Below are positions 47,518 to 64,000 of a stretch of DNA of 64,000 nucleotides, piece by piece. The stretch is from Eubacteriales bacterium (lineage in GTDB: Bacteria > Bacillota > Clostridia > Oscillospirales > Oscillospiraceae): positions 71,584 to 135,583 of the forward strand of contig JAUNNH010000004.1 in the NCBI GenBank assembly GCA_030531505.1, read 5' to 3'. The stretch's first letter is position 1. Each line of letters begins with the position of its first letter. The notes beneath the pieces were generated by a model. That model worked only from the letters and a program-made list of their open reading frames with translations, was not told the origin of the DNA and searched no databases. Both the position numbers and the translations under genes were made by a program.

Positions 47518-48207
47518 TTATGGACCGGATGAAATAGGTTGATACATCAAATCTGTAAAGCTTTCGATTCCATCAACATGCTCCTGCATATTACGTTTTG
47601 GAAATTGCTTCATAGGATCAAGGAGAACATCAATACCACTCTTTCTAGCCATCTTAACAACAGGCAAAAAGTCGCTATCTCCTGCGATGAGAACAATTTG
47701 ATCAACCAGATGATCATTTGCTAGAGATGCAACATCAAGGCCTATCCTCATGTCAACACCCTTTTGTTTTACGTCGAGCCGAAAGTCGTTTTCTGTTAAT
47801 GTTGCAATTTGCTTTGTACCAGAAAGAAGATCGTTGAGTACAGTTTCTTTTAAGACAAAAGATGCTGTTGATTCTGCTAACTCGCCTCTTCGTAAGGCAA
47901 CTTTCCGTTTTTCTACGAGATATTTGAAAAAATCATTTGACCAGCGCGTACCAGGCAGAGAAGAATAATCAATATCGTTTTTTGTGAGTGGATGCTTAAC
48001 TGTCCTTGTCATAGGAGGACAATCATAATAAAATATACGGTATAAATCGCGCGGCTCTGATGGCTCAGTGATATGCAATAAGCAATAAGAATATAATTCG
48101 GATGCTCTTTCCAATGGGGTTTTATTTCCCCACAAGTCGCGAGATCTTACTCGATAATATCCCCCATCTACCAGAATTGCAGTTTTTCTAGTAAGCTTGT
48201 TCTCCAT
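47518..48207 (-). CDS. NYN-domain (LabA/PIN-like) putative RNase
   Basis: The conserved acidic motifs ILVDGGY, KGVDMRIGLD and IAGDSDFLP are present, and the gene is clearly AT-rich. Confidence 0.8.
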   Translation of the reverse strand: MENKLTRKTAILVDGGYYRVRSRDLWGNKTPLERASELYSYCLLHITEPSEPRDLYRIFYYDCPPMTRTVKHPLTKNDIDYSSLPGTRWSNDFFKYLVEKRKVALRRGELAESTASFVLKETVLNDLLSGTKQIATLTENDFRLDVKQKGVDMRIGLDVASLANDHLVDQIVLIAGDSDFLPVVKMARKSGIDVLLDPMKQFPKRNMQEHVDGIESFTDLMYQPISSGP

Positions 48208-48794: not shown

Positions 48795-49970
48795 TTATTC
48801 TGCGTTGGATTGAAGAGATTTGATGTATTGCCCCATGCGGTTGGCACTCTCTTTTTTCATGCCCGGCGTGGAGTGCGCATAGGTGCTGAGCGTGAAGGAC
48901 GCAGTGGCATGACCGAGATTTTCCTGCACGGTCTTGATGTCGTCCCCGGCACGGAGGCTGTTCACTGCAAAGGTATGGCGGAGCGAGTGGAAGCGCAGCT
49001 CGTCAAAGCCGTTTTCCTTCATCAGCCGCTTGAAGCGGTTGTACAGAGTCTTGTTGCTGACGTAGCGTCCCAGCTCATTGGTGAACACCAGCTGATCCGG
49101 ATTCGACCAGGCACTTCCCGCGGCTTCTGCCCAGGCATTCTGTTTTGCCTGCTGGCGGCGTAAAGCGTCCATGACTTCATCGGCTACGGTCAGCGTTCGG
49201 ATCTTATCGTTCTTCAGGCTCGCAAACACATATTCCTTTGTCTTGCGAAGCAGCGTGTGCTGCTTGTTGATCAGGAGCGTGTTGTTCTCGAAGTCCACAC
49301 AGTCCCAGGTCAGGCCCAGCACTTCACCCTGCCGCAGGCCGGTGAAGACGGTCACGAAGTAGATCAGCTCGTCCGGCTCGCCTTTGATGACGGTCAGAAA
49401 CCGGAGCATCTCGTCGTCAGCCAGCGTCTCGACCTTCGTCTTCTCCACGCGGGGAACGATCACCGCATCCAGCGGGTTCGTGCGGATGTATCCCAGCCGC
49501 TTGGCCTGCTCCATCGCCCTGTGCAGCGCACCGTGGAGATTCTTGATCGTCTTGGGGGAGAGTCCCTTTTCGTTCAGCAGCTCGTTGTACAGATGCTGGA
49601 CCATGTGAGGGGTCAGTTTGCCGAGCTGGATCTGGCCGAGATTCGGCTTGAGGTGGGTGCGCACATGGCTGTCGTAGATGCTTCGCGTAGAGGGCTTTAG
49701 GTTTACGGTATAATCATTTATCCAGATATCCAGCCAGGTGCCGAGCTTCATGCTGCAGGGGTCGGTGTAGATCCCCTCGTCGATCTCAGTCGTGACCTTC
49801 GCCAGTTTCTGCCGAACCTCTTTTTGCGAATCTCCATAGATAGATCGCTGGATCTGCTTGCCGGTTTTGGGACTGAAGCCGACAGAGTAGCGGGCCTCCC
49901 ATCGCCCATCCGAGCGTTTTCGGATCGTACCTGCGCCTTTTGCGTTCTTTGTTGATTTGCTGTTTGACAA
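48795..49970 (-). CDS. tyrosine recombinase / integrase (element 2)
   Basis: The N-terminus is GTIRKRSDGRWEARYSVGF and the catalytic region is RFHSLRHTFAV...LGHATASFTLSTYAH. Confidence 0.9.
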   Translation of the reverse strand: MSNSKSTKNAKGAGTIRKRSDGRWEARYSVGFSPKTGKQIQRSIYGDSQKEVRQKLAKVTTEIDEGIYTDPCSMKLGTWLDIWINDYTVNLKPSTRSIYDSHVRTHLKPNLGQIQLGKLTPHMVQHLYNELLNEKGLSPKTIKNLHGALHRAMEQAKRLGYIRTNPLDAVIVPRVEKTKVETLADDEMLRFLTVIKGEPDELIYFVTVFTGLRQGEVLGLTWDCVDFENNTLLINKQHTLLRKTKEYVFASLKNDKIRTLTVADEVMDALRRQQAKQNAWAEAAGSAWSNPDQLVFTNELGRYVSNKTLYNRFKRLMKENGFDELRFHSLRHTFAVNSLRAGDDIKTVQENLGHATASFTLSTYAHSTPGMKKESANRMGQYIKSLQSNAE

Positions 49971-50136
49971 AATGACCTCACTTTCCTCCGTGATGAATCC
50001 GTTCTGTCGTGATGGATCCCGGAATCATTATAGCACTTCAACACTTTAAAGCAAGAAAAACTTTTTCCCCTCTCGCTTACTTCTTCGCGGGAGAGCTTTT
50101 CATTTCGGGGCGGTCATTTTTGGCCGCCCCTGTGCA

Positions 50137-50337
50137 TTACTTCTGCGTGCTCACTTCGATCCACTGAATCAACCGATCCTTCGGAACGAGCATCCGCTTC
50201 CCAATATGCAGGGTCGGGAAATCCTCCTGCCGCATAAGGGCATAGGCATTGGAGCGCGATATGCCGAGCACGGCTGCCACCTGCTCCGCCCGCAGTGTGA
50301 TGGGCAGTTGGTCAAACGAGGTGACGTTCGTTTTCAT
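50137..50337 (-). CDS. excisionase / HTH_17 DNA-binding protein
   Basis: LRAEQVAAVLGISRSNAYALMRQEDFPTLHIGKRMLVPKDRLIQWI is present. The internal ATG is at 50337. Confidence 0.7.
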   Translation of the reverse strand: MKTNVTSFDQLPITLRAEQVAAVLGISRSNAYALMRQEDFPTLHIGKRMLVPKDRLIQWIEVSTQK

Positions 50338-51133
50338 GGTTTCTCCTTTCCAGCTCGGCAATCAGTTTTTTCATCAGAGCCATTTTTTGATTCTTTCCTG
50401 CACTTCGCAGGTTTTCTCGCCCGAAGAAAAGGGGCGTGGTCATGGTCAGCACGCGGTCGTAGATGCGACGCTTATCCAGATCGGTTTCTTTTTGCAACTC
50501 TCGCAGTGTCAGATTCGTGGTGACGATCAGCGGCTTCCCGCTGAGATAGCGCCCGTCGATCACGTCATATACGGTTTCCAGGCCGAATTTGGTGTCCCGT
50601 TCCATGCCCAGATCGTCCAGGATCAGCAGTGGGCAGGAGCAGAGCAGGTGAATGTACGCCTCCCGATCCTCAAAGCCGTGGTTGATAACAGCCGCCAGAT
50701 TGGTCATACGGACGGGGATCTCCTGCTCGATCAGGGCGTTGGCGATACAGGCGGCCAGATAGGTCTTGCCTGTGCCCACATCACCCCAGAACAGTAATCC
50801 GGCATTTTGGGTGGAAACTGTTGACCAGTTCTCCACATAGTGACGGCATTGTGCCAGCCGTTCCGTCTGTATGCTGGCGTTGGCAAACGTCCAGCTGTAC
50901 ATGGCAGGGTAGGCAAAGCAGTTCCGCCGAAGCTCTGCAACTCTGAGCCGGTGATGGATCTCACGCAGCTTCTGCTCCTCGTTCGCCTGCCTCTCGCGCT
51001 CACAGCGGCATGGGCGCGGATGGCGGTCACTTCCGAAGATGGCTTCTCCATTCTCCCAGAGAGCTTCCTTTGGCTCATGGCATACGCCGCAGTACAGCAG
51101 GCCGTCTTCCCCAATGTAGTTCTCTTCGCTCAT
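50312..51133 (-). CDS. DnaC/IstB-like AAA+ ATPase with N-terminal Cys motif
   Basis: Walker A is GDVGTGKT and Walker B is LLILDDLG. Confidence 0.8.
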   Translation of the reverse strand: MSEENYIGEDGLLYCGVCHEPKEALWENGEAIFGSDRHPRPCRCERERQANEEQKLREIHHRLRVAELRRNCFAYPAMYSWTFANASIQTERLAQCRHYVENWSTVSTQNAGLLFWGDVGTGKTYLAACIANALIEQEIPVRMTNLAAVINHGFEDREAYIHLLCSCPLLILDDLGMERDTKFGLETVYDVIDGRYLSGKPLIVTTNLTLRELQKETDLDKRRIYDRVLTMTTPLFFGRENLRSAGKNQKMALMKKLIAELERRNHENERHLV

Positions 51134-51864
51134 AAGCTGTCCTCCCCCTCATAGCTGTAATCCCGTTCTGGCTGGGAATCGGCGTTCTTCCTGCGGTCAT
51201 TCGCTGCCCACTTCCGAATTCCAGCCTCATAGTCGTGATAGGTTTTGCTGTTGGCCTTCAGGTACACGCTCATCTCTTCTATGTACCGATCCAGATCTTC
51301 AGGATAATCTTCCTGAAGCGATTGAAGCTGCCCCTCTGAGAGAAACAAATTTCCATAGCGGCCATAGCCCTTTGCTTTCTCAGTATGGTTTCTTGATTCT
51401 GGTTTTTCTGTATTGTTTCTTGGGACCGGTTTTCCGATACCTCCTGGGCCGATTATTCGATCAGGTCTTGTCCGGTTTTTCGGTATAGCCGGGGCCGGTT
51501 TTCCGTCCTCTTCTGTCTCAGCTAGGACGACTTTCAGATAGATGCGCCGTCCACCCCGTCCGGCATAGCGTTCTCTTTCAATCAGATCGGCCTCATCCAG
51601 ATCATGCAGCGCCTGCTGAACGGCACTGCGGCCTTTTCTGAGTGTTTGCCCGATCTCCGCTTCCGAGAAATAGACATATACCCGTCCACGCTCGTCCATC
51701 CAGCCGCTTTGCAGGGACAGTTTCGCCCGATTGAGCAGCTGTGCGTAGAGCACCCGCGCGGTCATGCTCAGCTCCAGCTTCAACAGATAGTTCGGAAACG
51801 GCGCGAAGCCGGCAAGCTCCGTTTCCCTTGTGTAATAGGTCGTCTTGTAGTTTGTTGGATTCAT
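51130..51864 (-). CDS. replication initiator, RepA_N family
   Basis: FAPFPNYLLKLELSMTARVLYAQLLNRAKLSLQSGWMDERGRVYVYF matches the RepA_N pattern. Confidence 0.75.
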   Translation of the reverse strand: MNPTNYKTTYYTRETELAGFAPFPNYLLKLELSMTARVLYAQLLNRAKLSLQSGWMDERGRVYVYFSEAEIGQTLRKGRSAVQQALHDLDEADLIERERYAGRGGRRIYLKVVLAETEEDGKPAPAIPKNRTRPDRIIGPGGIGKPVPRNNTEKPESRNHTEKAKGYGRYGNLFLSEGQLQSLQEDYPEDLDRYIEEMSVYLKANSKTYHDYEAGIRKWAANDRRKNADSQPERDYSYEGEDSL

Positions 51865-52005
51865 TTTTGACGCCTCCCTTCACTAATCCCAATCTCAGGG
51901 GCCGGTTTTGCAACCACCTGGACAAAAAATATTTGTGAACTTTTTGTGAACGAGAGGCTGTATCAAAAGAGGTCTGGCTTAAAGGGTATGACAAAAAAGA
52001 CCGGC

Positions 52006-53718
52006 CTACCGCTCCACATCCGCTTTCCTGCGGCCTTGTGATCTCAGCTTTTGCGTTCCAACCACCTGCTGCTTTTCGTGGAGACGATTCAAGAGAGAAG
52101 CCTTTCCCGACAGGTCATTGTCCAGTTGCTCACTTTCCAAGGCCTGGTGAACGTGTGCTGCGGTTCCATCCAGAATCGCGTCCACATTGGCGCATACCGT
52201 CCGTAGTTCCTTTTCGTACTCTTGGAAGTACTTGCAGGTGCCGCGCTGGGCTTCCTTCCTCTGCAGCAACTGATTCCGTTCCTGCTTCAACCCTTTGAGC
52301 GACGGCACAACGGCATTCATGTTCTCCTTGATGTATTTCACTGCCGTTTCATAAAGATCCAGCTCATCGCCGTGCTGCTCCCGGAATCGTGTTTTGTTTT
52401 TTGCTTTCAGGAATTCAGCCTTCACCGCCTTGTTGCTTTTGTATTGCCCCACATAGTGGATCTGCTCATTGAGCGTCCGGATACGATCCTCGGTATTGTG
52501 GAAAGTTTGCTGGGCTTCCTGTAGCTTGCTCCGGATCTCTTCCAGCTTGGACTTTAGATCGTCACGGGTATCAAGACCGTTTTCCTGGATATAGCAGACG
52601 GTCTTTGCCATCTCTTTCAGATTGGTGAGCTTCACCTTCTGTGCGTAGGCTGCGCTCTGATGCGCCTTGACGCAACTTTGCAAATCGGTGACCAGCCGAA
52701 GATTGGAACGGATGAACAAAATTGCCTCGGGATCAGATTCGTAGTCATAGCCGGGATCGAACGTGAGGGATTTTTTGTTCTTCTCCAGTACCGCCAGTAA
52801 ATGATCTTTCTCGAAGTCGGCCCCCAGACGCCGAGCCGTGATATATCGTTCCCTGTCTGGCAGGAGATAGCTGAATCGGCCTCTGCTCTCTTTTAGCGTG
52901 ATCCCATATTTCTCTCGTAGCCCATTCTGCAATTCTTCAAAGGAACAGGCAGAAGCGGAAACATCGTTGATCGCATCCCGGAGCCTTTGCAGCTCGGTCT
53001 GGAATTTGTTAAAGCGCGGCTTCAAGCCGTCCGCGATGATCCTGGTGTTGAGCTCTTCCAGCTTTTCTTGCCCCCGCTGTTCCTTGCGGTATTCCTTCTC
53101 TGTAATCTTCACCGCTGCGGGGGACAGCAAATCTATCTGGTGCAAGCCCTCCCGCTCTGTGATCTCCATCAACCCCTTCTGCATGGCGGTCAGGAGCTCC
53201 CTCGTCTGATGGTGTTTGTATCCGGCACGGGAATCGTAGCTGCGCTCCATAAAGGGCTGCGGCTCTACGTCCAGTTTCCGCAAACTGTTCAAAACGATAT
53301 GCACATGGATATTCCCGCTTTTGTTGTTCCCGTCCATGTGGGTACACACCAACATCTGATGGCCAGCAAAAAAGCGGTTGGCAAATTCCAGACCGATGGC
53401 CTGGGCTCGTCTTCCGTCCAGGCCGCATTCCGTCACATCCCGCGGATCGAAGCTGATGATGTAATGGTGAGATTTCACATCGCCGCGATTCTGGTTTTTG
53501 TGAAAAGCCCGGTTGAGCTGTTTGCACTCCAGATCAAAGGTCAGCGCCTCGCAGCTGATCCCATCCAGATAGAATTCCGTGCGCAGCAGACGATGACCAT
53601 TTTCGTCCAGCAGCTCTTTTCCGGTTTTCTCATCATGCTGGAACATGAGATAATCCAAAACAGCACTGTAGTCGGAACTCTTACTGGACAGATGTTTTAA
53701 AATTGCCAATTCCCTCAC
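52006..53718 (-). CDS. relaxase/mobilisation nuclease (MobA/VirD2 family)
   Basis: HHYIISFDP and the histidine triad context GNIHVHIVLNS are present, followed by a long coiled-coil C-terminus. Confidence 0.85.
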   Translation of the reverse strand: MRELAILKHLSSKSSDYSAVLDYLMFQHDEKTGKELLDENGHRLLRTEFYLDGISCEALTFDLECKQLNRAFHKNQNRGDVKSHHYIISFDPRDVTECGLDGRRAQAIGLEFANRFFAGHQMLVCTHMDGNNKSGNIHVHIVLNSLRKLDVEPQPFMERSYDSRAGYKHHQTRELLTAMQKGLMEITEREGLHQIDLLSPAAVKITEKEYRKEQRGQEKLEELNTRIIADGLKPRFNKFQTELQRLRDAINDVSASACSFEELQNGLREKYGITLKESRGRFSYLLPDRERYITARRLGADFEKDHLLAVLEKNKKSLTFDPGYDYESDPEAILFIRSNLRLVTDLQSCVKAHQSAAYAQKVKLTNLKEMAKTVCYIQENGLDTRDDLKSKLEEIRSKLQEAQQTFHNTEDRIRTLNEQIHYVGQYKSNKAVKAEFLKAKNKTRFREQHGDELDLYETAVKYIKENMNAVVPSLKGLKQERNQLLQRKEAQRGTCKYFQEYEKELRTVCANVDAILDGTAAHVHQALESEQLDNDLSGKASLLNRLHEKQQVVGTQKLRSQGRRKADVER

Positions 53719-54073
53719 CTGCCAGTCTTTTCAGCACAGCCAGCATGGTCAGCACTGCATCCGTGGCTCCGCGGATCGCATCCTGCATGGCCTGAGAGTA
53801 CGTCCCGCCGGTGTTGTAGTATTTTGAAATCTGCTGCAGATCGACCAGGATGCCGTTCAGTTCCCTCACCGCCTTTTTCACTTCTTCTAGATCGGCGATA
53901 ATCTGAAACGTCGTTTCCACCTTTCCATGCACACTGCGATCACGGAGATAATCTGTGACCGTGGTGTTTTGCCTTTTTGTCAATTCTGTTATCTTCGCAT
54001 ATTCCGCCTCCGAGAAACGGATAGAGATCTGCTTACCCTTTCTCAGCGATTCATCTTTCTTTGGCCTTGCCAT
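53681..54073 (-). CDS. mobC: relaxosome accessory protein MobC
   Basis: It has the RHH-like ISIRFSEAEYAKI and a conserved LNGILVDLQQISKYYN block, and overlaps the relaxase start. Confidence 0.8.
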   Translation of the reverse strand: MARPKKDESLRKGKQISIRFSEAEYAKITELTKRQNTTVTDYLRDRSVHGKVETTFQIIADLEEVKKAVRELNGILVDLQQISKYYNTGGTYSQAMQDAIRGATDAVLTMLAVLKRLAGEGIGNFKTSVQ

Positions 54074-54625
54074 GATTTTATTTCCTCCTCACGTTTTGCT
54101 GTTTTTAGAATTTTGGCTTTGACGAGAATCGTCACCGGGGCAGCTTTCCCGCAAAAGGGAAAGGCTGCATCCGCTGCGACTACGCCAGTAGGAGCCACAG
54201 AGAAAAACGCCGTTTTTCTCAAACCGAGGGATTGGGGAATCGAAATCCCCAACAAGATGGCCAGACGGCAAAAACCGAAAACGGAGTTTTTGCATGTCGC
54301 AGGCGTATCTTGCGTTATAACAGTTGATCTCCTCACGTACCCCATTCTTCGGCCCGTCAATTGCAACCATGTTGGAGCAGATTTCTCAAAAACGTTTATC
54401 CCCCTCTACTTAACCCAAACTCAGAGGCCACTTTTGCAAGTACCTCATACGAAAAAACATGAAAAAATCGCAGCCGATGAGAAAACTCCCATTGGCTACG
54501 AAGAGCTAATCAAGATTTCATTCTTTTCACAAAATGAATAAGATGTTCGTAAAGTTGAATTTTTGTTGTGTTGTTTTGCTCGATATGATAAAATAGGATT
54601 AGTTTACAAACGTGAGGTGTTTCTT

Positions 54626-54838
54626 ATGCCTGTCAGTTACAAAAAACTCTGGAAGCTCTTGATCGACAAAGATCTGAAAAAGACCGATCTGCGCACAGTG
54701 GCTGGACTCAGCACGGGCACACTGGCGAAGCTCGGTAAAAATGAGGGCGTCTCAACAGACGTCCTTGTCCGCATCTGCCGCGCGCTTAATTGCGACATCG
54801 GCGACATTATGGAAGTGCTGCCGGAGGACAGGTCGTAA
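54626..54838 (+). CDS. XRE-family HTH protein
   Basis: MPVSYKKLWKLLIDKDLKKTDLRTVAGLSTGTLAKLGKNEGVSTDVLVRICRALNCDIGDIME is a canonical Cro/C1 HTH. Confidence 0.85.
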   Translation: MPVSYKKLWKLLIDKDLKKTDLRTVAGLSTGTLAKLGKNEGVSTDVLVRICRALNCDIGDIMEVLPEDRS

Positions 54839-54844
54839 CCAGCA

Positions 54845-55567
54845 ATGGATTATGGGCAGAGGAAATCTGTGATGACTGAAATTGAAAACCTATTCGATGA
54901 AAATCTCTTGCTTCCCAATTTAAAAGGTGCCGCATATTTTATCCTTTTGTATGAGCACGTTGAAGATAGCGTGATCAGCGCAGTAAAGGAATGCTATTCT
55001 ATCCCGTGTGTACTGGATGGAAAGATGTATTCCAGTATCGATGATGACTATATCAAAGCATTAAATGAGAAAATTGCCGCCGGTGAAAAGTCTTCCTTCG
55101 CCCCATTCGAGCTGCAGCTAAGGGAGGCAGAACGGTTACGGGAACGTTATCTTGATGAAGTTATCCGCCCCAAAAAAGAATCCGATAAAGAAAAGGACGG
55201 GAAACGCCTTAGAGGATCCCTTAATTGGATGCAGGAAAACGGCGTCCTTTCTGAGCAAGATGTCTCCCGACTTTTCCAGATACGCAAAAGAAGAAATGAT
55301 ATTGTTCATGAACTGCTGGAAGTACTGTCCGAGGGACTATCTGAAAGTGATGCCGGGATGATCGCAGACTTGCTGGCCATCAGCCATAAAATCAACACCT
55401 GGCATTTTCGTGAAATAGATATGCCCGCCTTAGGAATCGAATTGCCTGAGGGCACAACATCAGATGATGTGGTAGGTGGAGATGATGCCATTTTGTCCGG
55501 ACTATTCCGAATACTGTTTTTAAATGATGGCGCGCTTTTCAAAGAAGAAATCGAGAAACTAAAATGA
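54845..55567 (+). CDS. putative HEPN-domain protein (R-N-x3-H motif)
   Basis: LFQIRKRRNDIVHELLE contains RNxxxH in a predicted helical context. It lies 7 nt downstream of the XRE gene. The alternative start is 54875. Confidence 0.5.
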   Translation: MDYGQRKSVMTEIENLFDENLLLPNLKGAAYFILLYEHVEDSVISAVKECYSIPCVLDGKMYSSIDDDYIKALNEKIAAGEKSSFAPFELQLREAERLRERYLDEVIRPKKESDKEKDGKRLRGSLNWMQENGVLSEQDVSRLFQIRKRRNDIVHELLEVLSEGLSESDAGMIADLLAISHKINTWHFREIDMPALGIELPEGTTSDDVVGGDDAILSGLFRILFLNDGALFKEEIEKLK

Positions 55568-55651
55568 CCGATAAAGTCCAGGATCAACAATTGCATTGCG
55601 GAACAAATTGATCCTTCATTCCAGCGCATAAAAGAAATAGGGGTACACACC

Positions 55652-57742
55652 ATGCCTAACGACAAGTTTTCTATAGTCGGAACCAACATCGCTGAGAAGG
55701 CCACGATGATCTGGAACGTGGCGGATATGCTGCGCGGGCCGTTCAAGCCCCATGAGTACGGCCTTGTGATCCTGCCCATGACGGTGGTCAAGCGCTTTCA
55801 CGACTGCCTGCTGCCCACCCACGACGCGGTGTTGGCAGAGTACGAGAAGGTCAAGCACTTCGCCGTGAAGGACGGCTTTCTCACCAAGGCAAGCGGCTAT
55901 CAGTTTTACAACATCAGCAAGTTCACCTTTGACTCCCTGCTCACCGACCCGGAGAACATCGAGGCAAACTTCCGGGACTATCTGGCGGGCTTCTCCGCCA
56001 ACGTGCAGGACGTGTTGGCGAAGTTTGATTTCGACACCGTCATCCGCCGCATGGTGGAGAGCAACACCCTGTACCTGGTGATCCGGGAGTTCAATTCCCC
56101 CAAGGGCTACCTGGGCCCGGACCGGATCACAGCGGTGGACTGCGGCTATATCTTCGAGGATCTGGTGCGCCGCTTTTCCGAGTCCTTCGGTGAGGAAGCG
56201 GGAGCCCACTTCACCAGCCGGGACGTGGTGTATCTCATGACCGACCTGCTGCTGAGCGACGCGGATCTGAGCCGCGGCGGCAACGTGACTGTGTACGACA
56301 TGGCCATGGGCACCAGCCAGATGCTCTCCTGCATGGAGGAGCGCATCCATGAGCTGAACGCGGAGATCGGCGTCACCTGCTTCGGGCAGGAGTTCAACCC
56401 CTCCACCTTCGCCATTGCCAAGGCGGACATGATGATCCGCGGCGGCGATCCCAACAACATGCGTTTCGGCGACACCCTGTCCGAGGATCAGTTCTCCGGC
56501 TACACCTTCCAGTACATCATCTCCAACCCGCCCTTCGGCATCGACTGGAAGCGGGAGCAGAAGGCCGTGGAGGCCGAGAACGCCAAGGGTGAGCTGGGCC
56601 GCTTTGCGCCCGGTCTGCCCAAGATCTCCGATGGGCAGCAGCTCTTTGTGCTCAACGGTCTGGCCAAGCTTGCCCACGGCGGCAAGATGGCGATCATTCA
56701 AAACGGCTCGCCCCTGTTCTCCGGCGACGCGGGCAGCGGCCCCAGCGAGATCCGCCGCTACATCCTGGAGAACGACTGGCTGGACGCCATTGTGCAGATG
56801 AGCACCGACATGTTCATGAACACCGGCATCAGTACCTATATCTGGGTGCTGAACAAGGACAAGCCCGCCCACCGCATGGGCAAGGTGCAGCTCATCGACG
56901 CCTCCCACTGCTGTGAGGCGCGGCGCAAGTCCATCGGCACCAAGCGCAACGACGTCACCGACTTCTGCCGGGAACTGATCGTCCGGGCCTACGGGGAATT
57001 CAAGGACGACGCCATCTACGGCGACAAGGCGGGCGTCTACTGCCAGAGCAAGATCTTTGACAACGAGACCTTCGGCTACCGCAAGATCACCGTGGAGCGG
57101 CCGCTGCGACAAGCTGCTTTTATCAACGATGAAACACTCGATCTGACGAAATCCTTCTTGCGGCAACACCAGGTCGATGTTGATTCCAACATCATTGATT
57201 TGGGCGGCCAGATAACTGAGCGGGAAGTAACTATGCCACGTACCACGGGTGAAATTGGGGCAGAGCTCAATTTACGTCGGTATTATCAGATCCTTCTTTC
57301 CTTGAAGCGGGAGGAACCATACACAAGCATTTCCGAAGTTGAGAAACTCTTTAATGCGAGACCCTTGAATCCCGGCACGAAGTTGATGCGATTCAGTTCT
57401 TTTAACAGCATATCTTTGCCGGAACTTCTGCTCAAAACAGACCCGCGTGGTGAGATTGTCGCAAAGCGCGGCAAGCCGGTGGCCGACGCCGATCTTCGCG
57501 ACACGGAAAATGTCCCCCTGACGGAGGACGTGGAGAGCTATTTCAAGCGTGAGGTGCTGCCTTACGCGCCCGACGCCTGGATCGACGAGAAGAAGACCAA
57601 GGTCGGCTATGAGATCCCCATGACCCGTTACTTCTACGAGTACCAGGCCCCGGAGAAGACCGAGGACATCATGGCGCGCATCACCGCCCTGGAGCAGGAG
57701 ATATCCGCGAGCCTGCAGGCGCTGTTTCACAAGGAGGGCTGA
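55652..57742 (+). CDS. hsdM: Type I restriction-modification system, methyltransferase subunit
   Basis: The HsdM_N pattern IWNVADMLRG and the catalytic NPPFG (IISNPPFGIDW) are present. Confidence 0.95.
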   Translation: MPNDKFSIVGTNIAEKATMIWNVADMLRGPFKPHEYGLVILPMTVVKRFHDCLLPTHDAVLAEYEKVKHFAVKDGFLTKASGYQFYNISKFTFDSLLTDPENIEANFRDYLAGFSANVQDVLAKFDFDTVIRRMVESNTLYLVIREFNSPKGYLGPDRITAVDCGYIFEDLVRRFSESFGEEAGAHFTSRDVVYLMTDLLLSDADLSRGGNVTVYDMAMGTSQMLSCMEERIHELNAEIGVTCFGQEFNPSTFAIAKADMMIRGGDPNNMRFGDTLSEDQFSGYTFQYIISNPPFGIDWKREQKAVEAENAKGELGRFAPGLPKISDGQQLFVLNGLAKLAHGGKMAIIQNGSPLFSGDAGSGPSEIRRYILENDWLDAIVQMSTDMFMNTGISTYIWVLNKDKPAHRMGKVQLIDASHCCEARRKSIGTKRNDVTDFCRELIVRAYGEFKDDAIYGDKAGVYCQSKIFDNETFGYRKITVERPLRQAAFINDETLDLTKSFLRQHQVDVDSNIIDLGGQITEREVTMPRTTGEIGAELNLRRYYQILLSLKREEPYTSISEVEKLFNARPLNPGTKLMRFSSFNSISLPELLLKTDPRGEIVAKRGKPVADADLRDTENVPLTEDVESYFKREVLPYAPDAWIDEKKTKVGYEIPMTRYFYEYQAPEKTEDIMARITALEQEISASLQALFHKEG

Positions 57743-57745
57743 AAA

Positions 57746-58663
57746 ATGAAATCTGGAGATTTAAAACGAAAATCAGGTATGGTTCGTGTGTTGGGCGGCT
57801 TTAGTGAACAGCAGAACATAAAAAAACACCATCCTATTCTGCAAGTAGATGATATTGATGACGGAAGTCGAATCCAAATAAGTAATGAATTATATAAACT
57901 GTTAGGTATAGTTTTTGGAAATAGAGCTGGGTACTTTTTCGGTCCGAATTTCAGCTATAATTTGACTGACATTCTTTGCAAAGATATGCTTAATGATGTC
58001 TTCTGTGAGCGAAATGCCATTGCACCGGGCTATCAATATGATTGGCAAAAAATGTTTGAAAAAATCCACGACACAATTATGCAGGCAACATATAATGAGG
58101 TGTTTGATTTAATACAGTATGTTTGTTTATGGGTTGAATCAAGACTCTTTAGAGAAAAGGGCGAAATGTTTAAGTCTTTAAATGCGATCTTTCAGAAAGA
58201 GAACATTGGCTATCGTTTCGTGGCTGGGAGAATAACGCCTATTACTGATAATCAAGAAATGTTATCAATAGAGGAGGCCTGTCGGTCTCCAATTGAGGGA
58301 GGCCGTAAACAGATTCAGAAGGCGGTTGCTTTCCTCTCTGACAGACAAAACCCGGATTACAAAAACTGCATTAAGGAAAGCATCAGCGCTGTTGAATCTA
58401 TTTGTCAAGTAATTGTTGGTGATGAAAAGGCTACATTAGGCGACGCCCTAAAGCAACTAGAAAAGAGAGGTCTTTCTATTCATCCTTGCTTAAAGACTGC
58501 GTTTTCAAAACTCTATGGATATACTACCGATCAAGGTGGGATTCGCCATGCAGAAGGAATGTTTGAAAGTAACGTTACCTTTGAAGAGGCTAAGTTCATG
58601 CTTGTTAGCTGCAGCGCATTTATTAACTATTTGATTGCCGAATATGGCAAAAGAGGTAACTGA
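57746..58663 (+). CDS. AbiJ-NTD4-like / HEPN-like protein inserted between hsdM and hsdS
   Basis: There are 3-nt gaps on both sides. The N-terminus FSEQQNIKKHHPILQVDDIDDGSRIQISNELYKLL and the C-terminus LYGYTTDQGGIRHAEG...EEAKFMLVSCSAFINYL match a pattern I recall from AbiJ N-terminal-domain-4 proteins. The gene is AT-rich. Confidence 0.5.
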   Translation: MKSGDLKRKSGMVRVLGGFSEQQNIKKHHPILQVDDIDDGSRIQISNELYKLLGIVFGNRAGYFFGPNFSYNLTDILCKDMLNDVFCERNAIAPGYQYDWQKMFEKIHDTIMQATYNEVFDLIQYVCLWVESRLFREKGEMFKSLNAIFQKENIGYRFVAGRITPITDNQEMLSIEEACRSPIEGGRKQIQKAVAFLSDRQNPDYKNCIKESISAVESICQVIVGDEKATLGDALKQLEKRGLSIHPCLKTAFSKLYGYTTDQGGIRHAEGMFESNVTFEEAKFMLVSCSAFINYLIAEYGKRGN

Positions 58664-58665
58664 CC

Positions 58666-59970
58666 ATGGCGCGAGCGATGAAGGACTCCGGCATTGAGTG
58701 GATCGGAGAGATTCCGGAGGGGTGGGGAACAAACACAGCCTTTCAGATTTTCACACAAGTCAAAAACAAAAATGAAGGACTGAAAGAGCAGAACCTTCTT
58801 TCTCTCAGCTATGGCAAGATCAAGAGGAAAAGCATTGAGACAGTAGGCGGACTTCTCCCTGAAAACTTTGACGGGTATAACATCATTGAAGCCGATGATA
58901 TAGTGCTCAGGCTTACGGATTTGCAGAACGATCAGAAAAGCCTTCGCGTTGGCATTTCTCCGGAAAGAGGTATCGTCACCTCGGCGTACTTAACTCTACG
59001 GAATCGCAGCACATCCCTTCCCGAATACCTGTACTACTATCTGCATGCTTTCGATATTTCAAAAGGTTTTTACGGTATGGGCGCGGGGGTTCGGCAAGGG
59101 TTGAACTGGGATGGCTTGAAATGGCTAAAGATTCTGACTCCGCCAGTGCCAGAACAAGAAAAGATCGTGAGTTTTCTTGATGCCGAGTGCGCCCGGATCG
59201 ACGCGGTGATCGAGCAGACCCGCGCGTCCATTGAGGAATACAAGAAGCTGAAGCAGTCCGTCATCACCCAGGCCGTCACCAAAGGCATCCGCCCCGGGCG
59301 GAAAATGAAAGACAGCGGGGTGGAATGGATTGGGGTAGTACCAGAAGAGTGGGCGATTATTCGACTTCAACATATCGCTGCTGCCATAGAAAGTGGAACG
59401 AGCGTAAATGCTGGACAAGCAGCTGCTTCTGTTGGAGAACTCGGCGTATTAAAGACGAGTTGTGTGAGCAGATTTGTTTTTCTTCCAGAAGAAAATAAAA
59501 GCGTGAACAAGGATGAAGAAAACAGGGTTTCCTGTCCTGTGAGGAAGAACACAATTATTGTAAGCAGAATGAATACACCTGAGCTTGTTGGCGCCTGTGG
59601 ATATGTCAGTCAAGATTATGATAATTTGTTTTTGCCAGACAGATTATGGCAAGTTCATTTCAAGCCAAATACCAATGTAAAATACATTTATTATTGGCTC
59701 AGAAGCGCATGTGTTAGAAATTACTATTCTTCTCTCGCAGTTGGAACGAGCAGTTCTATGCAGAACATATCGCAGGATCAGTTCTATCATGCGTGCTGTC
59801 CATTTCCAGCAGCAGAGGAACAAAAAGAAATCGTTGCATTTCTCGATGAAAAGTGCAATTCAATTGACTTCCTGATTGATATGAAATCAAAGTTCTTAGC
59901 TGAACTGGAATCCTACAAAAAGTCCCTGATCTTTGAATATGTGACTGGGAAAAAGGAGGTTCCGAAATAA
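58666..59970 (+). CDS. hsdS: Type I R-M specificity subunit
   Basis: It has two TRDs separated by the conserved repeats PPVPEQEKIVSFLDAECARID and PFPAAEEQKEIVAFLDEKCNSID, and a duplicated MKDSG(I/V)EWIG motif. Confidence 0.92.
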   Translation: MARAMKDSGIEWIGEIPEGWGTNTAFQIFTQVKNKNEGLKEQNLLSLSYGKIKRKSIETVGGLLPENFDGYNIIEADDIVLRLTDLQNDQKSLRVGISPERGIVTSAYLTLRNRSTSLPEYLYYYLHAFDISKGFYGMGAGVRQGLNWDGLKWLKILTPPVPEQEKIVSFLDAECARIDAVIEQTRASIEEYKKLKQSVITQAVTKGIRPGRKMKDSGVEWIGVVPEEWAIIRLQHIAAAIESGTSVNAGQAAASVGELGVLKTSCVSRFVFLPEENKSVNKDEENRVSCPVRKNTIIVSRMNTPELVGACGYVSQDYDNLFLPDRLWQVHFKPNTNVKYIYYWLRSACVRNYYSSLAVGTSSSMQNISQDQFYHACCPFPAAEEQKEIVAFLDEKCNSIDFLIDMKSKFLAELESYKKSLIFEYVTGKKEVPK

Positions 59971-60039
59971 TCAGCAGCAAATACTATGAGGGTGTCCTTT
60001 TTGTTATTTTTTTCATACGTACATTGATAGGAGGCCAAG

Positions 60040-61515
60040 ATGCAAATTACGAGCATTCCGATTGTGGATTATTTACGCTATTGTATGAACGCAGCTCGGA
60101 GCAAGGGCTTTTTTTGGGTAATGGTCCTGCTCTCAAGAGAACGTGATAATCCAAGAGGATTTGACGATATCGCACGTTACTGGGATTCTTACGGTGATCT
60201 GACAGGTGAGAAAATACTCTTTGTCATGTCGGCAAGAAACGATCCGCAGACCAATTATAACCATCATCTTGAACACTCGGATTGTCGCTACAAGCGGCTT
60301 GGCAATACAAGCTTTATGATTGTAAACGAAACACATCCCCCTGTCTTGAGATGGAATTATCCTAATGAAACTCAACTAAAGCAACTGGAAGAGCAAGCAA
60401 TATACAATACGTCATCACAGGTATCGTCATTGCTTAAAATGTATAGACTTTCCGAAGCGGACGTTCCGGCTATTCTGCTGATTCCTACGGGAGGCGAGGA
60501 TCCAAACCCAATCGTTCTTCGTCACGAAATGGATATCTATGGTTGCATAAAATCATTCATTGAATATATTGAGCCTTCTTTTAGGGCTTTTGACGACTGT
60601 CAAGCCCAACTATATGCAAAGCGACGCGAAAAGGAAAAACTTGATAAAGAGTTAAGGCAGTGCGTGGTTAGTAAAGGTGTAAGAAAATATATAGAAGCCA
60701 AAGACTATATCAATCAGGCCATGCTGGAAATGGATTCGGATACTCGTAATGCTGTAAAGACTGCTATAGAGACAAAAGACTTGAGTATTTGCGCCAAGTT
60801 TTCTCAGCCGTTGCGTGGGATCTTGAACCGAATTATTGACATTCAAGTGCATAGCCCGAAGATTATGCAAGGCATTGAGAATGCTCCGCTCATTGTCAAA
60901 AAAATACAACAGCTTGATAAGGAGAAGAAGCAACTTGAGAAGCAAATCAACGAAACAGGAAAGCAGCTTAATCGACTGCGTATTGATACATATAAATCTG
61001 CAAGAGCGTTTAGCCAACAGAGAACGTATATGGAGGAGAAAACAATGTCTCAAGTAAACAACAAGCATTTTAAAATAGCATTCACTTTTTCCGGCAAGTA
61101 TAGAGGCAGTATTGTTGAACCGGTATGTAACGAGCTACTCAGTCGTGGCTCTTCAAAAGACGATATCTTTTTTGATGAATGGCATTCTGCCCTCATCAAC
61201 GGAATCAATGGAAGTGAGAAGCTAAAGTCTATTTATTTCCAGCAAAGCGACTGTGTTGTTGTTCTTCTATCCCCGGATTATAAAGAGAGAAACTGGACTG
61301 GAAATATTGAATGGCGCGCTGTCAAAGAGTTAATCAACACAGGAAAGGGAAACCGGATTTGTCTATTGGGAATTGATGGAGTAGATGTTGCGAATATAGA
61401 TGGTTTATACAAATATCAAGATTTATATAAGCGGATCGACAATATGATGCCATGCGAAATCGCCGATTTTCTTGAAGAGTACTGTAGAGAGAATAACTTA
61501 TACCTAAATAAATAA
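60040..61515 (+). CDS. TIR-domain protein with unknown N-terminal domain and coiled coil
   Basis: The C-terminal approx. 150 aa read KIAFTFSGKYR...IFFDEW...SDCVVVLLSPDYKERNWTGNIEWRAV, fitting the bacterial TIR/ThsB-like pattern (beta-A FxxS, catalytic Glu after W). The gene is strongly AT-rich. Confidence 0.62.
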   Translation: MQITSIPIVDYLRYCMNAARSKGFFWVMVLLSRERDNPRGFDDIARYWDSYGDLTGEKILFVMSARNDPQTNYNHHLEHSDCRYKRLGNTSFMIVNETHPPVLRWNYPNETQLKQLEEQAIYNTSSQVSSLLKMYRLSEADVPAILLIPTGGEDPNPIVLRHEMDIYGCIKSFIEYIEPSFRAFDDCQAQLYAKRREKEKLDKELRQCVVSKGVRKYIEAKDYINQAMLEMDSDTRNAVKTAIETKDLSICAKFSQPLRGILNRIIDIQVHSPKIMQGIENAPLIVKKIQQLDKEKKQLEKQINETGKQLNRLRIDTYKSARAFSQQRTYMEEKTMSQVNNKHFKIAFTFSGKYRGSIVEPVCNELLSRGSSKDDIFFDEWHSALINGINGSEKLKSIYFQQSDCVVVLLSPDYKERNWTGNIEWRAVKELINTGKGNRICLLGIDGVDVANIDGLYKYQDLYKRIDNMMPCEIADFLEEYCRENNLYLNK

Positions 61516-61536
61516 CATGCAGTAGGAGAAAAAGAG

Positions 61537-61594
61537 TGTTACGGGTAACACCGGAGAACACATTAAAATGGATTTCGCGGACTTCCTGCTGTCG
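61537..61594 (+). pseudogene. orphan, diverged hsdR 5' fragment (no start codon)
   Basis: It translates to VTGNTGEHIKMDFADFLLS, versus ITDTTEKRFEMDIADFLLS at the true hsdR N-terminus (62456-62512). Confidence 0.6.
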
Positions 61595-61600
61595 AGCGCT

Positions 61601-61662
61601 CTCTTGGCTCGCCCCTCGCGGCAGCGTGGGGAGAGCTGGCGCGCCAGCGCCTGAGAGGGGCA
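61601..61662 (+). repeat. left copy of 62-nt direct repeat flanking the DUF559 gene
   Basis: ctcttggctcgcccctcgcgGcagcgtggggagagctggcgcgccagcgcctgagaggggca has one mismatch to 62150-62211. It contains the palindrome gctggcgcgccagc. Confidence 0.85.
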
Positions 61663-61794
61663 ATACAGCTTTGGACGGGCGGCCCCTCTCCGTCACTTCG
61701 TGACACCTCTCCCCGACGCGGGGAGAGGCAAGAGAATGGCGCGGGGAGAGGCAAGCGTTTGGGGCGTGTCAAAAAAGAAGGAGCATCCAAGGCT

Positions 61795-62145
61795 ATGAAA
61801 AATAATGATCTCATGCTTGCCCGTGCGAGGGAGCTTCGGCGGGAAATGACGCCGCACGAGAGGAAGCTCTGGTATATGTTCCTTCGAAAGCACCCTGTAA
61901 AGTTCTATAAACAGAAAATCATCGAACGGTACATCGTGGACTTTTACTGTGCGCCCGCAAAGCTTGTCATTGAGCTGGACGGTTCGCAGCATTATGAAGA
62001 AGCCGGAATAGAAAGCGACAGAATGCGGGACGAACGGCTGAACGAGCTTGGCTTTAAAGTGCTGCGTTTCAGCAACCGGGAAGTCGACCGCGAATTCGAC
62101 GCAGTCTGTGACCTGATAGATCGAACCGTGAAAGAACGTATGTAA
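61795..62145 (+). CDS. DUF559 (Vsr-like endonuclease fold) protein
   Basis: ARELRREMTPHERKLWYMFLRKHPVKFYKQKIIERYIVDFYCAPAKLVIELDGSQH...FKVLRFSNREV is the canonical DUF559 sequence. Confidence 0.85.
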   Translation: MKNNDLMLARARELRREMTPHERKLWYMFLRKHPVKFYKQKIIERYIVDFYCAPAKLVIELDGSQHYEEAGIESDRMRDERLNELGFKVLRFSNREVDREFDAVCDLIDRTVKERM

Positions 62146-62149
62146 CCGC

Positions 62150-62211
62150 CTCTTGGCTCGCCCCTCGCGACAGCGTGGGGAGAGCTGGCGCGCCAGCGCC
62201 TGAGAGGGGCA
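62150..62211 (+). repeat. right copy of 62-nt direct repeat flanking the DUF559 gene
   Basis: See 61601-61662. Further shared blocks are gcggcccctctccgtcac and gcgcggggagaggcaag. Confidence 0.85.
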
Positions 62212-62255
62212 GTGCGGCGTTGAACATGCGGCCCCTCTCCGTCACCCTCCTCCGT

Positions 62256-62303
62256 CCCCCCCCCCCCGCACCACCCGGCCCCCCACCCCCCCCCCGGGGG
62301 GGG
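62256..62303. repeat. homopolymer cluster C11 ... C6 ... C10G9
   Basis: The runs are read directly at 62256-62266, 62278-62283, 62285-62294 and 62295-62303. Extra G7 runs are at 62319-62325 and 62368-62374. Confidence 0.9.
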
Positions 62304-62449
62304 GCCTCACAAAACGCCCGGGGGGGAGATGCAAGAATATAGCGCGGGGAGAGGCAAGAGAGCGACGCGGGGGGGAGCATAACTCCGGAAATGGCAAGAG
62401 AGCAATACAGAAAGAGCTAAGAAACAGAAACCAATGAGGAGGCGCCACC

Positions 62450-64000
62450 ATGCCGATCACCGACACCACCGAAAAACGCTTTGAAATGGATATTGCTGAC
62501 TTCCTTCTGTCGCCTGCGGGAGGGTATACAGGAAACCATGACGCCTACGATCCCAAGCTGGGGCTGTTCCCGGAGACGCTGGTGCGTTTCGTGCAGAAGA
62601 CCCAGCCGAAGGAGTGGGCGCGCTTCGTCATGCAGAACAAGACGGAGCCGGAGCGGAAGTTCTGCCTCGCCTTCAACACCGCCTGTGATATGGACGGGCT
62701 GCTGCAGGTTCTGCGCCACGGCTTCAAGCACCGGGGCGTGAGCTTTCGCGTCTGCTATTTCCGGCCGGAGTCCAGCCTGAACCAGACAGCAGCGCAGCAG
62801 TACGCGGCCAATGAGATCACCTGCAACCGCCAGTGGTTCTATTCCGCCGACACCCACAACAGTGTGGACATGGTGCTGGCCGTCAACGGCATCCCGGTGT
62901 TCGCATTCGAGCTGAAAAACCAGTACACCGGTCAGACGGTGGACAACGCCAAGCGCCAGTGGATGTACGACCGCGACCCACGGGAGATCTGCTTCCAGTT
63001 CAACAAGCGCATTCTGGGCTACTTCTGCGTGGATCAGCTGGAGGTCTGGATGACCACGAAGCTGGCTGGGAAGGACACCTTTTTCCTGCCCTTCAATCAG
63101 GGTTCCAACGGTGCGGGCAACGACGGTGGAAAGGGAAATCCCGCCAATCCCGACGGCTATCCCACCGCCTACCTGTGGGAGCAGGTCTTCCAGAAGGACA
63201 GCATGATGGACATTCTGCAAAAGTTCATCCATTTGCAGATCGAAGAAGAAAAGAAACGTTTGCCGGATGGCTCGGAGCAGACAATCATTAAGAAAAAGCT
63301 GATCTTCCCGCGCTACCATCAGCTGGACGTGGTGCGCAAACTCCTGGCCGACGTGCGCGCAAACGGCGCGGGGCACAACTATCTGATTCAGCACTCCGCC
63401 GGTTCCGGCAAGTCCAACTCCATTGCCTGGACGGCCTACCGTCTGGCCTCTCTGCATGACGATGAAAACCGGCCGGTGTTCTCCAGCGTCATCGTGGTCA
63501 CCGATCGCACCGTGCTGGACGCCCAGCTGCAGGAGACCATCTCCGGCTTTGACCACACCCTCGGCGCGGTGGAGACCATCGGCGAGGACAAGACCTCCAA
63601 GGACCTCCGGGACGCTATTAACAACGGCATCCGCATCATCGTCACCACGCTGCAGAAGTTCCCGGTGATCTATCAGGAGGTGGATAAGGTCGCGGGCCGA
63701 AACTACGCCGTGATCGTGGACGAGGCCCATTCCTCCCAGACCGGTTCCTCGGCGCTGAAGCTCAAGGCAGCGCTGGCCGACACAGAAGAAGCCCTGCGCG
63801 AATACGCAGAGCTGGAGGGGAAAGAGGAAGAGGAGCTCGACCTGAACAACAAGCTGCTGCAGGAGATGCTGGTGCAGGGCAAGCACGCGAACCTCTCCTT
63901 CTTCGCCTTTACGGCCACGCCCAAGGCTCAGACGCTGGAGCTTTTCGGCACCGAGTGGGAGGACGGCAGCTTTCATCCCTTCCATGTGTACAGCATGCGG
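62450..64000 (+). CDS. hsdR: Type I R-M restriction subunit (3' end beyond window)
   Basis: The ATG at 62450 has a GAGGAGG SD. It is not in the ORF track because no stop occurs before the window end. My own translation gives the nuclease-domain motif FELKN and the helicase motifs HSAGSGKSNS (Walker A) and VIVDEAHSSQ (DEAH). Confidence 0.93.
   Translation, partial: MPITDTTEKRFEMDIADFLLSPAGGYTGNHDAYDPKLGLFPETLVRFVQKTQPKEWARFVMQNKTEPERKFCLAFNTACDMDGLLQVLRHGFKHRGVSFRVCYFRPESSLNQTAAQQYAANEITCNRQWFYSADTHNSVDMVLAVNGIPVFAFELKNQYTGQTVDNAKRQWMYDRDPREICFQFNKRILGYFCVDQLEVWMTTKLAGKDTFFLPFNQGSNGAGNDGGKGNPANPDGYPTAYLWEQVFQKDSMMDILQKFIHLQIEEEKKRLPDGSEQTIIKKKLIFPRYHQLDVVRKLLADVRANGAGHNYLIQHSAGSGKSNSIAWTAYRLASLHDDENRPVFSSVIVVTDRTVLDAQLQETISGFDHTLGAVETIGEDKTSKDLRDAINNGIRIIVTTLQKFPVIYQEVDKVAGRNYAVIVDEAHSSQTGSSALKLKAALADTEEALREYAELEGKEEEELDLNNKLLQEMLVQGKHANLSFFAFTATPKAQTLELFGTEWEDGSFHPFHVYSMR

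Follow-up and report, generated by a model that had tools for sequence, protein, structure and literature searches.

A putative layered defence operon built around an interleaved Type I restriction-modification system on a mobilizable element of a Clostridia genome

The anticodon nucleases PrrC and RloC reside in hsd loci, in the order hsdM-hsdS-prrC-hsdR, and PrrC stays latent under EcoprrI until a phage anti-restriction peptide intervenes. The embedding of defence genes in Type I restriction-modification (R-M) loci ('guilt-by-embedding') was documented by Payne, Hughes, Fineran and Jackson (2024, bioRxiv 10.1101/2024.01.29.577857), who reported 96.7% co-orientation, listed PADLOC candidates (PDCs), which are predictions only, and discussed a PrrC-like backup or guard role versus a genomic sink. 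An earlier study (Anantharaman 2013, PMC3710099) had described the AbiJ-NTD4 module and HEPN proteins inside R-M operons, had proposed joint action of HEPN genes and such operons, and had put forward a model of 'multi-pronged defence'. The S. aureus protein SadR is an Abi_C HEPN-type RNase with an experimentally shown role in defence and an RNEYGDAH motif whose arginine is essential; AbiJ-NTD4 architectures were rare in a survey (3/2,815) (PMC13590631). Embedded systems that have been studied by experiment include DarTG2, which occupies the interval between hsdS and hsdR (S|R) and is led by the small repressor RptR (PMC12255303), and TgvAB in V. cholerae VPI-2 (PMC11411939); both act independently of HsdR. 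Here we analyse a 64,000-nt stretch of DNA (the window; contig JAUNNH010000004.1, positions 71,584-135,583, Eubacteriales bacterium assembly GCA_030531505.1) in which a Type I operon is interleaved with three other genes, an AbiJ-like gene between hsdM and hsdS (M|S) and a sensor-TIR gene and a DUF559 gene between hsdS and hsdR.

With a probability of roughly 0.65, we read the locus as a layered defence operon that forms the cargo of an integrative mobilizable element in a Clostridia genome. The cluster consists of eight co-directional genes (HTH_26, ORF0, hsdM, AbiJ-like, hsdS, sensor-TIR, DUF559 and hsdR; Table 1), whose domains were called with Pfam, PADLOC and NCBIfam models run on the window proteins. 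The embedded layout as such is already documented. A preliminary description of this DNA had proposed that the embedded genes are secondary effectors that fire when the Type I enzyme is disabled; that interpretation fits one insert of three at most, the AbiJ-like gene, which matches the PADLOC candidate PDC-S32.

Our map of open reading frames (ORFs) reproduced exactly the positions previously given for hsdM, the AbiJ-like gene, hsdS, the TIR gene, DUF559 and the start of hsdR. It also bore out that the three hsd genes are co-directional and non-contiguous, with other ORFs in both the M-S and the S-R intervals, and the Pfam and PADLOC scans returned the proposed identities of the inserts, AbiJ_NTD4 (305 aa), TIR (491 aa) and DUF559 (128 aa). 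Gaps of 3 nt had been described on either side of the AbiJ-like ORF; the gap on the hsdM side is indeed 3 nt (AAA), whereas that on the hsdS side is 2 nt (CC). Shine-Dalgarno sequences lie within the 3' end of hsdM for the AbiJ-like ORF and within that of the AbiJ-like ORF for hsdS. The remaining spacers measure 69 nt (hsdS-TIR), 243 nt (TIR-DUF559) and 304 nt (DUF559-hsdR). As far as the window reaches, the Type I gene set looks complete: HsdS has two target-recognition domains, and the hsdR start (ATG 62450) is preceded by GAGGAGG. An exact-protein look-up found the stretch from hsdM through the AbiJ-like gene and hsdS to the TIR gene again in two other sequencing runs (two 4.7-kb Logan contigs), and a protein identical to the window TIR protein is annotated from a Eubacteriales metagenome-assembled genome. 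A plasmid search for near-identical DNA gave no match.

The genomic contexts of its relatives tie the AbiJ-like gene to hsd operons. We sampled one genome per species, which returned 69 loci, and located hsd genes among six-frame ORFs with hidden Markov models (HMMs) built iteratively from the window HsdM, HsdS and HsdR. At 24/28 of the closest loci (38-59% identity) the end of hsdM or the start of hsdS lies beside the AbiJ-like gene on the same strand, and in these slot-keeping loci hsdR follows 1.2-3.3 kb downstream; overall, hsd genes occur within 8 kb in about 30/67 loci. Well under 1% of random genes would be expected to abut hsdM or hsdS, a general-knowledge estimate rather than a computed one, and set against it the enrichment at the closest loci is very large. 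The expectation that homologues of the inserted genes would be enriched in hsd operons was thus strongly upheld for this gene. The M|S layout recurs in Fibrobacter (L024-L026) and in bacteria of the candidate phyla radiation (L071, L072), and a Methanobrevibacter locus (L044) has a variant with hsdS upstream of the AbiJ-like gene. At the other 37 loci, a Pfam scan of the nearest neighbours gave no match to a Type I methyltransferase; it picked up other DNA methyltransferases (10), Mrr (3), DUF4391 (2), PglZ (1) and housekeeping genes. Distant plasmid homologues are free-standing, beside toxin-antitoxin genes.

The AbiJ-like protein belongs to a very large family (>7,500 matches), and its RefSeq relatives are annotated 'AbiJ-NTD4 domain-containing protein'. 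Its AbiJ_NTD4 match scores 73.6 bits against a cut-off of 34, and the PDC-S32 HMM aligns residues 16-300 with profile positions 7-281 of 285. PF14355 Abi_C is precomputed for about half of the close homologues, one of them 99% identical, and went unreported for the window protein at E <= 0.01. Residues E211, S212, E217 and G264-G265-I266-R267-H268 are invariant among aligned close homologues, and none of the 60+ genome relatives departs from the [IV]-R-H dyad. Structure prediction gives an all-helical protein (pLDDT 79.9); a PDB sequence search with the family profile gave nothing meaningful.

Base composition and sequence identity indicate how this gene travels. The inserts had been described as AT-rich against GC-rich hsdM and hsdR, which is true of the AbiJ-like and TIR genes (Table 1), whereas DUF559 is merely intermediate and hsdS is AT-rich too. 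In 26/26 related loci (L010-L048) the GC content at third codon positions (GC3) of the AbiJ-like gene plus hsdS is below that of hsdM plus hsdR (mean difference 0.27), indicating that AT-richness is a family trait and not the mark of a recent insertion here. Identity matrices agree with r = 0.99 for HsdM versus HsdR and with r ~0.45 for the AbiJ-like protein versus HsdM or HsdR (Spearman ~0.2; 0.24 versus HsdM), so that HsdM and HsdR co-evolve tightly. The identity of AbiJ-like relatives to the window copy lies at 42-59% both beside an HsdM of ~83% identity and beside one of ~41%. Together, the GC3 values and the uncoupled identities suggest that the AbiJ-like gene moves with hsdS between hsdM/hsdR backbones, always into the M|S slot, so that the segment appears to behave as an exchangeable AT-rich cassette. 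A sharp recombination breakpoint within hsdM was considered and rejected, identity to close relatives staying at ~0.8-0.9 and dropping only over the last ~60 residues; sequence comparison places the apparent mosaic boundary near the hsdM 3' end. Among plasmid relatives of the window HsdM, M-S-R is contiguous in E. faecium, and the slots are filled differently in Francisella (an 'RNA-binding domain' protein) and in Selenomonas (RhuM), which argues that the AbiJ-like gene is dispensable for the Type I enzyme. A paper search gave no hit for PDC-S32, and the supplements that accompany the PADLOC embedding paper gave none either; that the PDC-S32 clade keeps to its slot and travels with hsdS is a result of the present analysis, which we did not find in the papers searched.

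The sensor-TIR gene showed no such linkage. Its AlphaFold (AF2) model (pLDDT 79.5) comprises an alpha/beta N-terminal domain (residues 1-165), a helical linker (166-335) and a TIR domain (343-485). A TIR fold is supported by Foldseek matches of this model to AbTir (7uxu, TMt 0.72) and also to SPARTA TIR-APAZ, MyD88 and TIR-STING, all at a probability of ~1, and many homologues carry PF13676. E424, a candidate catalytic glutamate in the motif NWTG-x-IEW, is kept in all members that have a TIR domain, and E430 is invariant. PADLOC returned no convincing model (PDC-S66 only, E 0.0026). About 25 full-length homologues are present in an index of 5.8 billion proteins, and hsd genes occurred in 0/7 of the distinct contexts examined. 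Homologues lay beside nSTAND3, RhuM and patatin; beside a serine recombinase, Mob_Pre and Mrr; 3' of a UvrD helicase and a methyltransferase; beside a cluster of DUF3427/PLD helicase, HNH and NUDIX genes; on a Mob_Pre/ParB element; and, in two cases, on short contigs with no identifiable neighbours. Enrichment in hsd operons, expected of all inserts, therefore failed for this gene, whose relatives sit in other defence islands or on mobile elements. Membership in Thoeris was rejected: the neighbours are hsdS and DUF559, there is no ThsA-type gene, and PADLOC gave no Thoeris match. No ThsA, Argonaute or STING partner was found among the annotated ORFs of the locus, and membership of the inserts in CBASS was likewise rejected on missing partner genes or domains (Pfam, PADLOC).

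What marks the TIR protein is its N-terminal part. Foldseek gave no identity for the N-terminal domain, the best non-TIR match being protein disulfide isomerase-like at a probability of 0.47, and the N-terminal module together with the helical linker had no Pfam, PDB or PADLOC match. An exhaustive HMMER search with the N-terminal 340 residues recovered 158 representative clusters in 1.84 billion proteins. This unnamed N-module (the N-terminal ~190-340 residues) has conserved R33, W48, S50, T55, F61, E139, P143 and Y166, and a scan of 73 long members showed it joined to TIR in about one third of them (23 by TIR_2, 6 by the TIR model). Elsewhere it is fused to PNP_UDP_1, GT4-conflict, SEFIR, CHAT, PD-(D/E)XK, EAD11 or SMEK (P0226-P0371), and in P0027 to a metallophosphatase. 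Such swapping of effectors on one N-module argues that the TIR protein is an autonomous sensor-effector.

The S|R spacer of sister loci holds PDC-S27, DUF6414, DUF5677, unknown ORFs (six in all), or nothing, and because the cargo is entirely different from one sister locus to the next we regard the spacer as an insertion hotspot; in E. coli and related bacteria, DarTG2 and other pairs are likewise reported to land at S|R (PMC12255303). The six same-strand ORFs (193-504 aa; L011, L015, L017, L021, L023 and L029) had no Pfam or PADLOC match and are further candidates from the hotspot.

In the window the spacer also holds DUF559, whose probable true start is ATG 61795 (116 aa), preceded by AGAAGGAG. 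Two 96-nt direct repeats, 92% identical and spaced by 549 nt, bracket the gene; two copies are present in the window and none is expected by chance. The left repeat has an RNA fold z of -2.7. An Rfam scan of 54000-64000 returned only a chance miRNA match (E 0.37) and placed the repeat in no Rfam family, and the GC-rich repeat did not recur among 169 fetched loci. We clustered 80 metagenomic relatives at 90% identity into 22 clusters. The predicted hsd enrichment was borne out in part: 4/22 clusters directly follow hsdS, one of them in the EcoEI-type order M-S-DUF559-unknown-hsdR, but the largest clusters, three in number, have housekeeping surroundings. One cluster, of a single locus, occupies the gyrB|gyrA interval, and relatives also occur between spoIVA and an asnS-type tRNA synthetase gene. 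Several independent relatives (L161, L089, L141, L095 and L146) have direct repeats of their own on both sides (CCTCCC...GGGAGG-type hairpins), and a copy at gyrB|gyrA is among those flanked in this way. Because of the direct-repeat flanks and the occurrence in housekeeping operons, we read DUF559 as a selfish cassette that would tolerate or prefer operon spacers and not as a guard effector; repeat-bounded DUF559 units of this type may represent an undescribed small mobile element. Three homopolymer tracts stand between the right repeat and hsdR (Table 1); they might switch restriction on and off by slipped-strand phase variation, or might have arisen as an artefact of assembly.

Two further genes precede hsdM. 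HTH_26 encodes a Cro/C1-type helix-turn-helix (HTH) protein behind an AT-rich promoter-like region and is presumed to be the operon regulator. In another genome (L032, 7571-8927) a close homologue of this regulator (3.6e-28) lies immediately before a free-standing AbiJ-like gene with no hsd gene nearby, and the partner of the regulator may be the AbiJ-like gene rather than hsd. ORF0, which probably starts at M10 (54872), has a sub-threshold match to HEPN_RiboL-PSP (19.5 bits; cut-off 28.4) and no match among PADLOC or NCBIfam models. Its family is small (33 clusters), and the canonical HEPN motif R150-N-x3-H155 is invariant across 20 homologues, suggesting HEPN-like nuclease activity. One homologue (L165) lies inside a Type III-like R-M locus, in a mod|res interval that also contains a TIR gene; two others adjoin Mrr-nSTAND3/AbiEii (L167) and ApeA-HEPN (L168). 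HTH_26 and ORF0 are not conserved 5' of hsdM in sister loci and hence are not core parts of the hsd lineage of the window.

The claim that the operon sits on a mobilizable element was supported, integrase, RepA_N, relaxase and MobC-like genes lying on the minus strand beside the cluster (Table 1). The stretch from 48795 to 54073 is the backbone of an integrative mobilizable element, with an integrase and a relaxase. The examined part of the window showed no mating apparatus, and from the integrase as far as the window end there are no type IV secretion system genes. Another tyrosine integrase, this one joined to an HTH_26 domain, lies upstream of that of the element, together with two HTH_3 proteins and an NYN-domain protein; these genes hint at a tandem array or a further integrated element.

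Table 1. Features of the window discussed in the text, in window coordinates, with base composition of the genes between and including hsdM and hsdR.
Feature	Position	Strand	Match or remark	GC	GC3
Second tyrosine integrase	40499-41947		fused to HTH_26 domain		
HTH_3 protein	41859-42614				
HTH_3 protein	46164-46754		also with DUF739		
NYN-domain protein	47518-48207				
Tyrosine integrase	48795-49970	-	Phage_integrase 5e-31		
IstB/DnaC-like ATPase	50312-51133	-	Pfam match		
RepA_N	51130-51864	-	RepA_N 4e-14		
MobA/VirD2 relaxase	52006-53718	-	Relaxase 5e-13		
MobC-like accessory protein	53681-54073	-	MobC-like/MbpA match		
HTH_26 (70 aa, Cro/C1-type HTH)	54626-54838	+	HTH_26 1.5e-19; first gene of cluster		
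ORF0, HEPN-motif protein (240 aa)	54845-55567	+	R-N-x3-H motif		
hsdM (696 aa)	55652-57742	+	N6_Mtase 1.3e-51; HsdM_N 1e-20; PADLOC MTase_I 4e-230, full length	0.586	0.82
AbiJ-NTD4/Abi_C-like protein (305 aa), PADLOC candidate PDC-S32	57746-58663	+	AbiJ_NTD4 3e-20; PDC-S32 1.6e-89	0.383	0.35
hsdS (434 aa)	58666-59970	+	Methylase_S, two stretches; PADLOC Specificity_I 6e-97, residues 3-433	0.455	0.49
Sensor-TIR protein (491 aa)	60040-61515	+	TIR_2 E 8e-6; hsdS|hsdR slot	0.402	0.40
N-module of sensor-TIR protein	60040-61059				
Left 96-nt direct repeat	61601-61696		followed by GGGGAGAGGCAAG units, 61720-61778		
DUF559, Vsr-like endonuclease fold (128 aa)	61759-62145	+	PF04480 6.9e-33, 113 bits vs cut-off 20.6; PRK09767 1e-19	0.496	0.58
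Right 96-nt direct repeat	62150-62245		GGGGAGAGGCAAG units again at 62323-62381		
Homopolymer tracts C12, C10, G9	62249-62331		hsdR leader, ~120-200 nt before start; repeats D4, I5		
hsdR, 5' part (516 codons)	62450-64000	+	HSDR_N 6e-9; ResIII 5e-14; SWI2_SNF2 1e-21; TIGR00348 5e-27	0.593	0.83

In the layered operon that we propose, HsdM, HsdS and HsdR would form a Type I R-M enzyme that attacks unmethylated incoming DNA. PDC-S32, in a lineage-conserved arrangement in the M|S slot, would provide a second line of defence as a latent, HEPN-like abortive-infection effector of the RNase type, and its 2-3 nt packing against both neighbours suggests that it is probably produced together with the methyltransferase core. 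The AT-rich PDC-S32/hsdS cassette would be exchanged horizontally between GC-rich hsdM/hsdR backbones. At the S|R hotspot this locus would host a single-protein TIR sensor-effector that acts independently of hsd, presumably by depleting NAD+ once activated, whereas DUF559, with its flanking repeats, would be a small selfish cassette that inserted into the spacer and probably stands outside the defence logic. The HTH_26 regulator and ORF0 belong to the same co-directional cluster, and all eight genes may form one operon under the HTH regulator.

Several observations weigh against this proposal. No arginine lies 4-6 residues upstream of [IV]RH in the 60+ AbiJ-like relatives, so that the canonical Rx4-6H motif is absent, and the only meaningful matches of the fold are weak ones to small HEPN proteins (Foldseek E ~1, probability 0.6-0.84); for both reasons RNase activity of the AbiJ-like protein is uncertain, though plausible. 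The HMMs used to detect hsd genes derive from the window locus itself, and the Pfam cross-check covers the nearest neighbours of the AbiJ-like loci only. For the TIR protein, the TIR_2 match (residues 350-446) scores 26.7 bits, just under the Pfam cut-off of 28, a PDB sequence search with the family profile gave nothing meaningful, and the context sample is small (n=7). Because hsdR runs off the window end, its integrity can be read for the first 516 residues only. Finally, orientation, tight spacing and the lack of convincing intergenic terminators are the only grounds for presuming co-transcription of the cluster.

The rival explanations differ in how far the inserts are coupled to the Type I enzyme. 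Were the Type I complex to keep all three latent until a phage anti-restriction protein disabled the enzyme and set them free, one would expect co-directional genes, an AbiJ-like gene packed tightly against hsdM and hsdS and strongly linked to hsd, and the TIR gene at the S|R position of prrC (PMC3710099), all of which are seen. Yet TIR homologues lie outside hsd in 7/7 contexts and bring a sensor module of their own, DUF559 relatives are repeat-bounded and mostly found in housekeeping operons, the ABC-ATPase domain of PrrC and RloC is present in no insert, and the S|R spacers of sister loci differ in their cargo or have none, so that we consider a guard role for all three very unlikely. Since the TIR gene is not enriched at hsd, DUF559 is enriched there only in part and no insert has the ABC-ATPase, the guard idea remains for the AbiJ-like gene alone. 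By analogy, it is possible that the M2S complex holds PDC-S32 inactive as EcoprrI holds PrrC, but linkage to hsdS alone could also account for the position of the gene, and we regard a PrrC-style guard model confined to PDC-S32 as tentative and on the whole unlikely. Spelled out in full, PDC-S32 would be a guard analogous to PrrC whose HEPN site is a non-canonical 'RH', kept inactive by co-translated HsdM2-HsdS, freed by a phage anti-restriction protein and exchanged with hsdS such that each specificity comes with its own tripwire; we consider this version rather improbable.

The inserts might instead be hitch-hikers in a genomic sink, a hypothesis discussed by Payne et al. (bioRxiv 10.1101/2024.01.29.577857), with no insert coupled to Type I function and the M|S position explained by hsdS linkage in a recombining cassette. 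That the AbiJ-like gene is AT-rich like hsdS and phylogenetically uncoupled from hsdM and hsdR would fit, as would distant members that are free-standing or beside other methyltransferases, Mrr or PglZ, the close relatives L014, L020, L022 and L032 that lack hsd genes, and an HsdM family that functions without the AbiJ-like gene. The slot and its 2-3 nt packing are, however, kept in distant phyla and in no fewer than two subfamilies of HsdM/HsdR that share only ~40% identity, and such retention is easier to explain by a selected position (co-expression or interaction) than by linkage alone; we consider the sink doubtful, although it is the alternative to which we give most weight. An accessory or regulatory Type I subunit without toxin activity, serving in assembly, restriction alleviation or exchange of the specificity cassette, would explain why the AbiJ-like gene lacks the canonical HEPN Rx4-6H, sits at M|S with possible translational coupling to both neighbours and travels with hsdS. 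Many family members without any hsd genes speak against such a subunit, as do the invariant E/S/E and G-[IV]-R-H residues, which suggest an enzyme active site, the same HsdM family functioning without the gene, and the related Abi_C protein SadR, which is a defence RNase; this is the least credible of the alternatives.

Telling the truly hsd-linked PDC-S32 apart from opportunistic S|R cargo narrows the search for a PrrC-like guard, and the locus offers three candidates suited to cloning: PDC-S32, whose RH motif is unusual, a rare effector-swapping N-module, which exchanges TIR, PNP, CHAT, SEFIR, glycosyltransferase, nuclease and phosphatase effectors, and the uncatalogued ORF0 family. As in the loci of the embedding survey, co-oriented genes are nested between hsd genes and the M|S insert is a full-length match to a PDC, but the window TIR protein has no convincing PADLOC model and ORF0 has none at all. 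As with PrrC/EcoprrI and RloC, a candidate of the RNase type (HEPN superfamily) lies inside a Type I operon, with the TIR gene at the S|R position of prrC. Unlike PrrC and RloC, no window insert has an ABC-ATPase (Pfam, NCBIfam, PADLOC), and for that reason none qualifies as either; the AbiJ-like gene, moreover, lies at M|S and not at S|R and has G-[IV]-R-H in place of the Rx4-6H of PrrC, and ORF0 has RNx3H yet no ATPase domain and is located outside the hsd genes. The AbiJ-NTD4 module and the PF14355 Abi_C of close homologues are shared with AbiJ and SadR, whereas the RNEYGDAH of SadR is replaced by (T/S)DQGG-I-R-H in the window family, and lactococcal AbiJ and SadR are free-standing where the window gene is hsd-embedded. 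The TIR protein resembles the TIR effectors AbTir, SPARTA, TIR-STING and Thoeris ThsB in its predicted fold and in an acidic residue (E424) after the central strand, and differs from them by a new N-terminal alpha/beta module and a helical linker. Compared with DarTG2 and TgvAB, the cargo is a TIR sensor-effector with DUF559 and the regulator is HTH_26; like those systems, the locus uses the S|R spacer as a landing site, and a small regulator gene heads a multi-gene island.

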